The notes under the pieces: model-generated
Seen by the model: the letters and a program-made list of their open reading frames with translations, nothing else
What the model was told of the DNA's origin: nothing
The model's database searches: none
Position numbers and translations under genes: made by a program
Part shown: one piece after another, positions 1 through 22,690 of the stretch
Layout: every line of letters starts with the position of its first letter
Position numbering within the stretch: the first letter of the stretch is position 1
Assembly: GCA_021628325.1 (NCBI GenBank)
Contig: JAJXAL010000006.1
Span: 37-64,036 of the forward strand
Length of the DNA stretch: 64,000 nucleotides
Direction of reading: 5' to 3'
Source: Segatella copri
GTDB lineage: Bacteria; Bacteroidota; Bacteroidia; Bacteroidales; Bacteroidaceae

Positions 1-2
1 GT

Positions 3-428
3 TTAGTTTACACTCTCGACTCTGATAGCACTAAAATTGAAGTTTCCTGTCTTCTTCAAGTATTCAAGCACAACGGGAAAACTCACCCGAGATAAATATC
101 TTTTATCTTTTATCAACTCCGCACATTTAATAAATTCTTCTAACTGATCAACATTGCCTACCAAATCATATAGCAAAGGTGAATGCTGGTCGTATGTAGT
201 GTGACAAATGATATAACCATTCCGGCTATAAACATTATTCCCCCACCAATGAGCATCACAAATTCTAGTATCCCAAAAATAGTATCCGCTACCTAACCAC
301 GGCTGTTTACTACCCCTCTTCAGGATACCATTAGGATATGCAACAGAACAAAAATAGGGACCATGCTGCTCCACTTCCTCATAGTTCTGCCTATCCTCGA
401 GCGTCTGGTATATTTCCGTGGGCTTCAT
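3..428 (-). CDS. Putative ADP-ribosyltransferase-like toxin (CmdT-like), 3' end outside window
   Basis: WLGSGYYFWD..DAHWW motif resembling ART-fold proteins; follows a SecB-like gene; ORF open at window edge. Confidence 0.5.
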   Translation of the reverse strand: MKPTEIYQTLEDRQNYEEVEQHGPYFCSVAYPNGILKRGSKQPWLGSGYYFWDTRICDAHWWGNNVYSRNGYIICHTTYDQHSPLLYDLVGNVDQLEEFIKCAELIKDKRYLSRVSFPVVLEYLKKTGNFNFSAIRVESVN

Positions 429-433
429 ATCAT

Positions 434-847
434 TTATTCTACTATAGTTGTTTTCTCCTTCAAACTCTCAGTAAGCCCCATAAGATTAACGGTAGGCAAG
501 ACTATAGGTCTTACATTAGCTTGCAGAGAAAGCGTACTGATGAATGCTCTGATATACGGAAATATGATAGCAAGACTGTTTGGGTAGAAGTATTCCGGTA
601 TTTCAGAAATCTTAATACGATCCTCAAAAGAAAACAAAGCTACACACGAAACAAAGATTACCTCTGTACTTGTTTCCTTACATTCCACCTTAACATCAAA
701 ATCCAATTCATAGGTTGCCTCCTTCTGATTATACATACCTCTAGGGTTGAACACGATATTCAACTCCGCTTTACCAGGTATATTAAAATCTAATGATGCC
801 TTTGTAAAGTGATATTCTTCTAATTTAAAAGCTGGTTTATTCATCAT
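434..847 (-). CDS. SecB-like chaperone
   Basis: 137 aa; C-terminal NSLAIIFPYIRAFISTLS..ANVRPIVLPTVNL is the SecB-family signature. Confidence 0.85.
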   Translation of the reverse strand: MMNKPAFKLEEYHFTKASLDFNIPGKAELNIVFNPRGMYNQKEATYELDFDVKVECKETSTEVIFVSCVALFSFEDRIKISEIPEYFYPNSLAIIFPYIRAFISTLSLQANVRPIVLPTVNLMGLTESLKEKTTIVE

Positions 848-850
848 GTT

Positions 851-1114
851 TTATGCTGCAAAAAAATACAGAGCGTCTGCCTCTATCCTCTCTACATCGG
901 AATCTACAGACACGTCAAACTTATGCGTATCCATTTTCTTTTCAGAATCAGAATACACAACATCTACACCAAATAGTTCCTTCACATATCTGGCATACTC
1001 AATGACATCGGGACCAATCTCATTGAGATTCTCTATCTCTTTCCAATCATTGTCGAGAACGTCCTTTGGGGTATTCTCGAAATAATCTTTAAGACTTTCA
1101 AAAAGATTTCCCAT
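851..1114 (-). CDS. Small acidic protein, candidate antitoxin
   Basis: 87 aa, first gene of a tightly packed operon (3 and 5 nt gaps); ends ADALYFFAA. Confidence 0.55.
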   Translation of the reverse strand: MGNLFESLKDYFENTPKDVLDNDWKEIENLNEIGPDVIEYARYVKELFGVDVVYSDSEKKMDTHKFDVSVDSDVERIEADALYFFAA

Positions 1115-1161
1115 ATTCTTCCTTAGTTTATCATTTTGTTATATTTATATTATCTTCGCTG

Positions 1162-1169
1162 CAAAGATA
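1162..1169 (-). promoter_or_regulatory. Bacteroidetes -7 promoter box (TATCTTTG) for the 1114-3 operon
   Basis: Plus strand CAAAGATA about 50 nt upstream of the start at 1114. Confidence 0.6.
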
Positions 1170-3741: not shown

Positions 3742-3816
3742 ACCTCCAGTAGCACCGGATATGCCTGTTCTCCGTAGGGATGCCTTGCGGAGAACACCCC
3801 TTATTTCATAAGCAAA

Positions 3817-3853
3817 TTCCCCCATCCTGCTTTTGAAGGCAGGATGGGGGAAT
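3817..3853. terminator. GC-rich hairpin between convergent genes
   Basis: TTCCCCCATCCTGC...GCAGGATGGGGGAA; near-identical copy at 9577-9612. Confidence 0.7.
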
Positions 3854-3856
3854 TTC

Positions 3857-4726
3857 TTATCTGTTATTTCTGAGATAATATTTTAATTTTTCTATCTGTT
3901 CCTGGGTAAGACCGGAATACTTCATAATCAGATTGATGTCAACACCATCAGTCAGCATATTCTTAGCAATTTCCAAGGCTTTCTCATTCTTACCTTCTTG
4001 CTTCGCCGTATCAATGGAGTTCTTGATATCCCGGTATGCCATCTTGCTGGTCTCGTACTCCCTCATTTCCTGCGGAGTAAACTTGGCTATTTCGGCTTCT
4101 TCGAAGAGGCGGTCGAAGACTTTGTCGCACAATTCTTTAGGGCGCTGGGTAAGCTTATAGAGGTTCTTCAGTGCATAGAGCCACTTCTCGTAGAGCGTAT
4201 CCAGTTCTTCCAGGGGTTTGTTGAACTTGGAAATCTCTACATAGATATATTCGAGTTTGTCGTAAAATACTTTGTGGGTAGCTGTGTCGCACAACTGCAC
4301 ATGATGGCGGATTTTCTCCTTGTCGAATGCGTCCTCGTTCATGCTGAAGTTGAGCAGGGCTACGGTATAGACATGATTGAGTCTGAAATCCCATTCACTC
4401 CCCTTTGGTGCCTGTTCACGGATAGGGAAGGTTGAGTAGAAAAGGGCGCGATCCTTGAAATACGTCTGGTACGCATTCTGCATTTCTACGATGAACTTCT
4501 CGCCGTTTTCGCCCTCGCAATATACATCGAAGATGGCTCTGCGGTCGGTATAGACATCTCCCACATGCTCCGGGTTCAGATACGACACGTCCTTCACAAC
4601 CTGTTTACCATTAAACAAGCTGTTGAGGAAGCAAATGAGTAATTCCTTATTCATTGCTGTTCCGAATATTCGCTTGAAACCGAAGTCGGTCAGCAAGCTG
4701 ATATATCTTTCTTCTACCTGTTTCAT
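3857..4726 (-). CDS. Rpn-family / PD-(D/E)XK nuclease (transposase_31-like)
   Basis: TDFGFKRIFG, AIFDVYCE, FIVEMQ, DRALFY motifs; IAKNML..G C-terminal tail; start placed at MKQVEE. Confidence 0.9.
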   Translation of the reverse strand: MKQVEERYISLLTDFGFKRIFGTAMNKELLICFLNSLFNGKQVVKDVSYLNPEHVGDVYTDRRAIFDVYCEGENGEKFIVEMQNAYQTYFKDRALFYSTFPIREQAPKGSEWDFRLNHVYTVALLNFSMNEDAFDKEKIRHHVQLCDTATHKVFYDKLEYIYVEISKFNKPLEELDTLYEKWLYALKNLYKLTQRPKELCDKVFDRLFEEAEIAKFTPQEMREYETSKMAYRDIKNSIDTAKQEGKNEKALEIAKNMLTDGVDINLIMKYSGLTQEQIEKLKYYLRNNR

Positions 4727-9513: not shown

Positions 9514-9576
9514 GCCAGGGATTGGCAGAAACAGACAGATATAAGTTTTTAAATTTTCGTTTATCAGATAAAGCAA

Positions 9577-9612
9577 TTCCCCCATCCCGCTTGAGAAAGC
9601 AGGATGGGGGAA
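9577..9612. terminator. GC-rich hairpin with GAGA loop between convergent genes
   Basis: TTCCCCCATCCCGCTT-GAGA-AAGCAGGATGGGGGAA. Confidence 0.7.
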
Positions 9613-9711
9613 ATTATTTCTGTATAGTAATGCTTTTCATTCTAAGCGAAAAGCAATTCTTATGCTATCCCTGCGCTCCGCTCTGCAGCGTTGCGCAAAG
9701 GATGAGTAAAT

Positions 9712-12735: not shown

Positions 12736-12804
12736 CGAAATTTTATCTAAATTCCAACATCTTTTTCGGATTTTAACACTCTTAAATCTACATTTTTTTT
12801 TAAT

Positions 12805-12839
12805 CCCCCAACCTACTTTCGCAAGCGGGATGATGGGGG
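12805..12839 (-). repeat. CCTACTTTCGCAAGCGGG hairpin repeat (GCGA loop on minus strand)
   Basis: Copies at 12937-12970, 13404-13428 and 18204-18240; related to 3817 and 9577 hairpins. Confidence 0.75.
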
Positions 12840-12936
12840 CTTAGCTTTTGGTTTTAACCACATCAAAAAACTATAATTAAGAGAACTTGATATACAACTT
12901 TTTTGAACCAATGAAAATATTAAAAAGTAAACAAAA

Positions 12937-13098
12937 TCCCCAACCTACTTTCGCAAGCGGGATGGGGGGAACTATTTTTTATATAATAAACCTTATTTTA
13001 ATATAAACTAGCATTCAGAGAATGCTTGAAAAAAGACAGGAAACCGCTTCACAACGGCATTCCCAACTAAAAAACAAAGTCTGGACCGCTGCCCAAAG
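12937..13098 (-). ncRNA. Candidate structured RNA element, copy 1
   Basis: Same ordered set of three hairpins plus CCGCTGCC as 18204-18362. Confidence 0.45.
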
Positions 13099-22575: not shown

Positions 22576-22690
22576 GAAACAGTTATACGTTAACTATTGC
22601 CAAAGCTCCCGTTTACTGCCGAAACAGTTATACGTTAACTGTTGCCAAAGCTCCCGTTTACTGCCGAAACAGTTATACGTTAACTGTTGC
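22576..22690. repeat. Three tandem copies (45-bp period) of recombination site GAAACAGTTATACGTTAACTGTTGC
   Basis: Copies at 22576, 22621, 22666 with identical 20-bp linkers. Confidence 0.9.

Follow-up and report, generated by a model that had tools for sequence, protein, structure and literature searches.

A CmdTAC-family module in antitoxin-chaperone-toxin order with an IS256-interrupted toxin gene in Segatella copri

Introduction

Whether three tightly packed genes at the edge of a Segatella copri contig form a known toxin-antitoxin-chaperone (TAC) system in an unfamiliar order, and whether that system can still act in this genome, is the question raised by the locus studied here. It lies at the start of a 64,000-nucleotide stretch of DNA, referred to as the window. 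The antitoxin gene was downstream of the toxin gene in all TAC systems identified at the time of Sala et al. (PMC3581621), and a system composed of an ADP-ribosyltransferase (ART), an antitoxin and SecB was attributed to Aravind et al. 2015 by PMC7159879. The anti-phage system PD-T4-9 is CmdTAC (PMC9519451), with toxin (T), antitoxin (A) and chaperone (C) in T-A-C order. An earlier note, made from the letters of the window, had read the locus as a CmdTAC-like module of Bacteroidota, rearranged and with a toxin of the ART type, and this reading was upheld by matches to the PADLOC profiles PD-T4-9_A and PD-T4-9_C. We consider it probable that the locus is a CmdTAC-family module in A-C-T order, that its intact form aborts phage infection via a predicted RNA ADP-ribosyltransferase, and that the copy in this genome, cut by an IS256-family element, is inactive.

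Locus layout and promoter

The features of the locus, in window coordinates, are as follows.

1..17, minus strand: left end of an IS256-family element, which adds the last four residues and the stop to the 141-aa ORF
18..428, minus strand: CmdT-like ART toxin fragment, first 137 codons (PD-T4-9_A, E = 4.7e-40, profile positions 1-129 of 187)
434..847, minus strand: gene for CmdC, a SecB-like chaperone, 137 aa (PD-T4-9_C, E = 1.6e-46; PF02556)
851..1114, minus strand: gene of the CmdA-like antitoxin, 87 aa (three predicted helices and a tail ending in YFFAA)
1161..1169, minus strand: -7 promoter box of the Bacteroidota type, placed 46 nt upstream of where the antitoxin gene starts

As called, the toxin-side ORF covers 3-428 (141 aa, stop at 3-5), and the three ORFs are separated by gaps of only 3 and 5 nt, in line with the tight spacing claimed in the earlier note. 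The claim that they have their own -7 box was also borne out by the box at 1161-1169. The pattern, taken from the consensus in PMC8748976, was enriched in the window, with 26 occurrences compared to 9.9 in shuffled sequences. There was no exact TTTG -33 partner 15-24 nt from this box, and a sigma-70 promoter/terminator scan stayed at chance level (6 seen, 7.1 expected). According to Pfam, the neighbours of the module in the window include fimbrillin-like, PD-(D/E)XK_2, VapE-like and HU-like genes.

A second promoter-like structure was observed nearby. Perfect 23-bp inverted repeats at 1430-1452 and 1619-1641 enclose a 166-bp segment with a -7 box at 1456-1464 on the minus strand, which is likely an invertible promoter for the fimbrillin gene at 1711; in the assembled state, this putative promoter faces the A-C-T operon. 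The same segment was present in contig C101 between two divergent fimbrillin-like genes and absent from L021, an intact metagenomic relative of the locus. Two further copies of the repeat motif were located at 22623-22690, in direct orientation and 45 bp apart. In addition, G+C-rich hairpins of about 50 bp recur 3ʹ of genes in the fimbrillin region (3807-3858, 9571-9622, and 12804-12969), and similar hairpins were found on both sides of the intact cassette of L021.

Conservation of the gene order

To follow the gene order, 195 loci from genomes, metagenomes, viral contigs, plasmids and one phage were read, with one locus from an unpublished genome left out. A toxin match was present in 192 loci, repeats included: 123 were A-C-T, 35 T-x-C, 1 x-C-T, 8 C-T, mostly near contig ends and with no antitoxin detected, and 25 had no SecB in the fetched flank. 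These 25, of which 18 were weak matches (<50 bits), did not enter the trees. Discarding loci fetched more than once, rows with an unresolved order and toxins shorter than 135 aa gave 141 rows (105 A-C-T, 35 T-A-C, and 1 x-C-T), from which 64 representatives below 75% identity were drawn (34 A-C-T, 29 T-A-C, and 1 x-C-T); as the searches were seeded with the toxin of the window, the A-C-T share in these counts is overstated. The 34 A-C-T rows formed a single clade, with support of 95/86 in the toxin tree and an SH-aLRT of 90 by a quick method in the chaperone tree. The three genes are co-conserved, as the earlier note had supposed, and the order is rearranged: the window and the 105 de-duplicated loci have A-C-T rather than the canonical T-A-C.

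The promoter followed the same arrangement. In 27 of the 34 A-C-T representatives, the 120 nt upstream of the antitoxin gene contained a -7 box; upstream of the toxin gene this was so in 4 of 34, that region being coding DNA and hence an imperfect control. The spacing between the chaperone and toxin genes in these representatives ranged from -11 to 16 nt. The A-C-T genes are likely expressed as one transcript, antitoxin first.

The single x-C-T locus, L014 (L014:1495-2790), encodes a toxin with histidine at the first position of the catalytic triad (H-type) and was placed apart from the main clade by the toxin tree and the chaperone tree alike. Grouping L014 with the A-C-T rows as one clade was rejected (AU p = 0.006), but its upstream gene matched the antitoxin profile described below with an E value of only 3.2, so a second, separate origin of the toxin-last order is likely on these sequences but not proven. 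The trees are unrooted; we infer that T-A-C is the ancestral order because it is more widely spread, occurring in Acinetobacter, Psychrobacter, Vibrio phage loci and other Bacteroidota.

Two loci departed from the three-gene form. At L005:4490-5384, an antitoxin-toxin pair of the A-C-T clade had no secB gene or remnant between the two genes, and its 78-aa antitoxin had no aromatic-AA tail; the pair has the look of a naturally arisen derivative without a chaperone. Its record carries the label Flexilinea, although in our reading the DNA looks Bacteroidota-like. At L187:2986-4495, an H-type CmdT and a CmdA-like gene stand ahead of a gene for a YbjN-family protein (Pfam, E = 1.1e-06), which occupies the place of SecB, a possible chaperone swap.

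The chaperone and the antitoxin

The 137-aa product of the middle gene scored 27.9 bits against the SecB family PF02556 (cut-off 26), confirming the clear SecB-like protein of the earlier note, and was the only SecB above the Pfam cut-off in this genome. We rejected a housekeeping SecB, as the protein scored far under the NCBIfam SecB cut-offs, matched PD-T4-9_C (PDLC04072) strongly and is patchy in occurrence. Its gene adjoins the toxin gene, well inside the two-gene distance between T and C that PMC11618068 uses to call CmdTAC.

The 87-aa protein is acidic, as claimed, with a pI of 4.2 and 22 D/E residues against 9 K/R. Its model comprises helices at residues 4-14, 17-32 and 37-48, with pLDDT below 50 for residues 59-87, and ends in YFFAA. 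CmdA is described as having N-terminal helices and a long unstructured tail with a terminal LAA recognised by ClpXP (PMC11618068; bioRxiv 2024.02.24.581848), and the 87-aa protein shares this build, with a terminal AA. PADLOC PD-T4-9_B did not match the window protein; the same profile gave the A-C-T relative L110 an E value of 0.021 and also missed most of the tested T-A-C middle genes. When a profile of 34 A-C-T antitoxins was run against 331 ORFs from the T-A-C loci and L014, the top nine matches were all middle genes (E = 8.5e-11 to 0.15). Among the nine was the annotated Vibrio PD-T4-9_B, with a weak E value of 0.074, and direct hhalign of this pair was also weak (probability 1.2). On the CmdA build and the recovery of T-A-C middle genes, the protein is likely the antitoxin, as the earlier note proposed, and its tail is likely a chaperone-addiction tail and ClpXP degron.

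The antitoxin ended in AA in 21 of 35 A-C-T and 19 of 28 T-A-C representatives. The distribution was uneven among the branches: 20 of 21 antitoxins had the ending in the subclade with the relatives of the window, compared to 1 of 13 in the deeper A-C-T rows, in which the end residues were mostly hydrophobic. As only this one deeper row ends in AA, the ClpXP step is not clade-wide in A-C-T. This genome encodes both ClpX and ClpP.

Family, fold, and active site of the toxin

The assignment of the toxin to CmdT is carried by sequence homology. The fragment matched the PADLOC profiles PDLC04068, with the E value listed above, and PDLC04069 (E = 5.8e-09), and the intact toxin of L002, the Segatella sinensis allele, gave 3.2e-45. 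The fragment carries the WLGxGYYFW motif pointed out before, as WLGSGYYFW. A profile of 119 toxin relatives aligned to a Vibrio phage protein annotated as PD-T4-9_A with a probability of 99.6 (hhalign, E = 1.5e-23), placing Q8 over a histidine. Other searches were negative: the window toxin matched nothing over cut-off in Pfam and nothing in NCBIfam, a sequence search of solved structures returned 0 matches, the intact homolog P0001 found no match in an annotated phage collection, and the T-A-C toxin of L015 likewise matched nothing when run against viral sequences. DUF3990, which the earlier note had suggested checking, was absent from the window toxin and from 7 of 7 scanned relatives.

The fold was assessed on P0001, which has 192 aa and is 93% identical (model pLDDT 89.6). 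The top rows of three fold searches were ART or RES folds, comprising PARP, diphtheria-type and RES domains, with a best Z of 7.5 (rmsd 4.4, 142 aligned), and RES NADases tied with ARTs at the top. No match reached Z 8, and no PDB Foldseek match fell under E = 0.001. The scores are middling, and the model is consistent with the ART fold that the earlier note predicted.

The CmdT triad is HY-[E,D,Q], and its tyrosine is required for defence (PMC11618068). The A-C-T clade does not carry this triad: it was Q-Y-Q in 33 of 35 A-C-T representatives, the exceptions being one truncated toxin and the H-type L014. The first residue was Q in 34 of the 35, whereas the 29 T-A-C rows had H in 25 and Q in 3, with 1 unaligned; Q therefore marks the A-C-T clade yet is not exclusive to it. 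The earlier note had placed YQT where such ARTs often have HGT. YQT does align at the position of the ART histidine, but CmdT relatives mostly have YHT or FHT there. Only three toxin residues, Y50, W62 and Q165, were invariant.

The exchange of H for Q bears on the chemistry. A changed or weaker toxin activity may apply, because PARP9 of humans, whose triad is Q-Y-T, appears in PMC9189837 as an inactive enzyme for want of the histidine. Decay of the toxin is disfavoured, because dN/dS was 0.07-0.27 in 9 of 12 pairs (the remaining pairs gave 0.42, no amino-acid change at all, and saturation, one each), and the Q-Y-Q toxins are under purifying selection. One alternative retains the tripartite control and gives the Q-Y-Q toxin another reaction, namely hydrolysis of NAD+ or modification of protein, DNA or another RNA motif, in place of mRNA at GA. 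The near-fixation of Q in the A-C-T clade, the lead of the RES-family proteins NatT and MbcT in the wide fold search (Z 7.5), and the role of the histidine in assisting NAD+ orientation in PARPs (PMC9189837) favour it. Nevertheless, we regard it as improbable, as H-type CmdT, the annotated Vibrio protein among them, has WLG-GYYFW, W-W-G and the third-position Q too, the first-position Q also occurs in canonical T-A-C loci, and Z differences within 1 count as ties.

A further family was seen among the weak matches. L131, L136-L139, L142-L147 and L156-L163 encode proteins of about 200 aa with FHG and WLGHG-YFWE motifs; they are weakly CmdT-related (<50 bits), SecB was undetected in their fetched flank, and Pfam gave nothing in 5 of 5 tested.

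Proposed action and biological role

For an intact A-C-T module, we propose CmdTAC-like action by analogy with the E. coli system. The SecB-like chaperone would hold the aromatic tail of the antitoxin and shield its terminal AA from ClpXP. During infection, this tail would lose the chaperone to a freshly synthesised structural protein of the phage, the freed antitoxin would be degraded, and the released toxin, with Q8-Y50-Q165 standing in for the H-Y-(E,D,Q) triad, would ADP-ribosylate mRNA, halt translation and abort the infection. With the toxin gene last, antitoxin and chaperone would already be there when the toxin is made, giving it a partner to fold onto. CmdT of E. coli ECOR22 alone is insoluble and non-toxic and needs CmdA for folding (PMC11618068), and because of this need we take the A-and-C-first order to be a safe assembly order. 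The same observation removes the force of a test set out in the earlier note, in which a toxin harmless by itself would have counted against the reading.

A stress-responsive or addiction-type cassette with no anti-phage role appears very improbable beside this anti-phage reading. In its favour, mycobacterial TAC is described as stress-induced (PMC3581621), and most of the 87 flanking ORFs scanned were housekeeping, surface or without assignment. On the other side, anti-phage defence is the role of the closest characterised family (PMC11618068; bioRxiv 2024.02.24.581848), and the module is patchy, being present in 7 of 151 genomes of the genus, with its own genome included and one a weak partial match. 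Moreover, some copies lie amid phage genes (portal, terminase, tape measure, integrase), a setting partly due to our choice of a viral collection to search, or beside defence-linked genes (MmeI, RloB, AbiEi, AAA_21).

Relation to known systems

The A-C-T module belongs to the known CmdTAC family and is new as a conserved, reordered, Q-type Bacteroidota clade. With CmdTAC/PD-T4-9 of E. coli ECOR22 and E. coli O112ab:H26 it shares a homologous ART-fold toxin, a SecB-like chaperone, a small antitoxin whose helical N-terminus leads to a disordered tail ending in AA, a single tight operon and a frequent prophage location. The homology is drawn through the PADLOC profiles and the Vibrio protein. The differences are the gene order, the first triad residue (H there, Q here), the antitoxin length (121 aa for CmdA of O112ab:H26, 87 aa here), the Bacteroidota host and the broken toxin. 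TAC systems such as HigBAC of M. tuberculosis, MqsRAC and HigBAC of E. coli NT1F31 likewise combine a SecB-like chaperone with an antitoxin that has an aromatic, aliphatic-ended tail; in these the toxin is an RNase rather than an ART, and in all TAC systems identified by the time of Sala et al. the antitoxin is downstream of the toxin, whereas here it is upstream. ARTs of the diphtheria-toxin/PARP class and the RES toxins NatT, MbcT and ParT have in common with the toxin the predicted fold (Z 5-7.5) and the tyrosine at the second triad position, but identity is 5-13%, and the module toxin is a self-acting bacterial TA toxin without delivery domains.

Published rules treat the A-C-T order differently. 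The homolog rule of Vassallo 2022 (PMC9519451) requires the toxin, a downstream ORF and then SecB, and so excludes it, whereas the rule of Vassallo 2024 (PMC11618068) requires only T and C within two genes and would silently count it. The proteins themselves are already covered by a public profile, since PADLOC model PDLC04068 gave 269 bits on an A-C-T locus. Our literature search returned no paper on the A-C-T order or on CmdTAC in Prevotella, although Extended Data 1b and 3a or the supplements of PMC11618068 may show it; nothing on either subject was found in PMC13069673.

A wider reading, which we put forward tentatively and think unlikely as a whole, is that A-C-T is a functionally distinct CmdTAC branch. 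The toxin gene would have moved from first to last at least twice in Bacteroidota, with the order aiding folding onto a pre-made antitoxin-chaperone complex, and Q-Y-Q would have a changed target or chemistry. The release switch would have been swapped within the branch since then, being an AA degron in gut Prevotella-type loci, a tail of hydrophobic residues other than AA in the deeper rows, and missing from one genome, where the antitoxin has no tail and the pair no chaperone, and the module would serve as a defence of human-gut Bacteroidales that senses phage structural proteins.

TAC operons are described as toxin-first, with CmdT needing CmdA to fold, and a large toxin-last clade offers a natural test of what order does for assembly and safety. 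Similarly, the H-to-Q change can show whether mRNA modification depends on the ART histidine, and the several antitoxin tail types how far ClpXP dependence reaches. Searches based on gene order would skip the clade, and with it a likely anti-phage system of gut Prevotella/Segatella.

Interruption of the toxin gene by an IS256-family element

The earlier note expected the toxin to continue in the adjacent window. Instead, an IS256-family element follows codon 137, and the contig ends 36 bases beyond the window start. Similarity to homologs stops at codon 137 (window 18), precisely where the terminal repeat of the element starts, with positions 17-1 being its left end. The 55 bases that close the contig also open contig C173 and close contig C194. 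C173 holds a 1369-bp element encoding a 401-aa Mutator-family transposase (Transposase_mut, PF00872, E = 8e-100) between 25-bp imperfect terminal inverted repeats at both ends. In its 1.37-kb size, transposase and repeats, it is an ordinary member of the IS256 (Mutator-type) family; the right junction, needed to read a target-site duplication, falls outside the assembly.

Of the 192 codons of the toxin itself, only 137 are left. The fragment keeps Q8 and Y50 but has lost Q165, the third triad residue, and the last four predicted strands. In a tblastn search with four homologs, and with the C-terminal part of each, none of the 266 contigs showed the missing 55 codons. The smallest contig in the assembly is 1026 bp, contigs under about 1 kb having been filtered, and the missing piece may have been lost in this way. 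An assembly artefact, with the toxin gene whole in this genome, might be suspected from the coincidence of the break with a contig end and an IS right end joined to no contig, but it is hardly credible, as the toxin match stops exactly at the terminal inverted repeat, the same IS end meets another flank in C194, the 55 codons are in none of the contigs, and size filtering can account for the missing right-hand piece and not for the junction.

Because the interruption breaks the toxin gene, the module copy in this genome is likely inactive, reduced to an antitoxin-chaperone pair plus a dead toxin fragment. Near-identical intact copies occur in Segatella sinensis, the nearest named relative (91.7% identity over the locus), and in gut metagenomes. 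The insertion is likely recent, because each gene of the intact allele L021 has one synonymous change and no amino-acid change relative to the window, and the knockout is likely recent with it. Among four public sequencing runs, contigs from two diverged from the window at position 18 into an intact toxin gene, and the other two did not reach that site; no public run shared half of the words of the locus, the best reaching 0.40.

Another near-identical A-C-T copy, at L076:3318-4574, had frameshifts in the chaperone and toxin genes, from decay or assembly error. The IS256-family element itself (G000:C173, L197) carries an outward -7 box overlapping the transposase stop and could drive genes downstream of its insertions.
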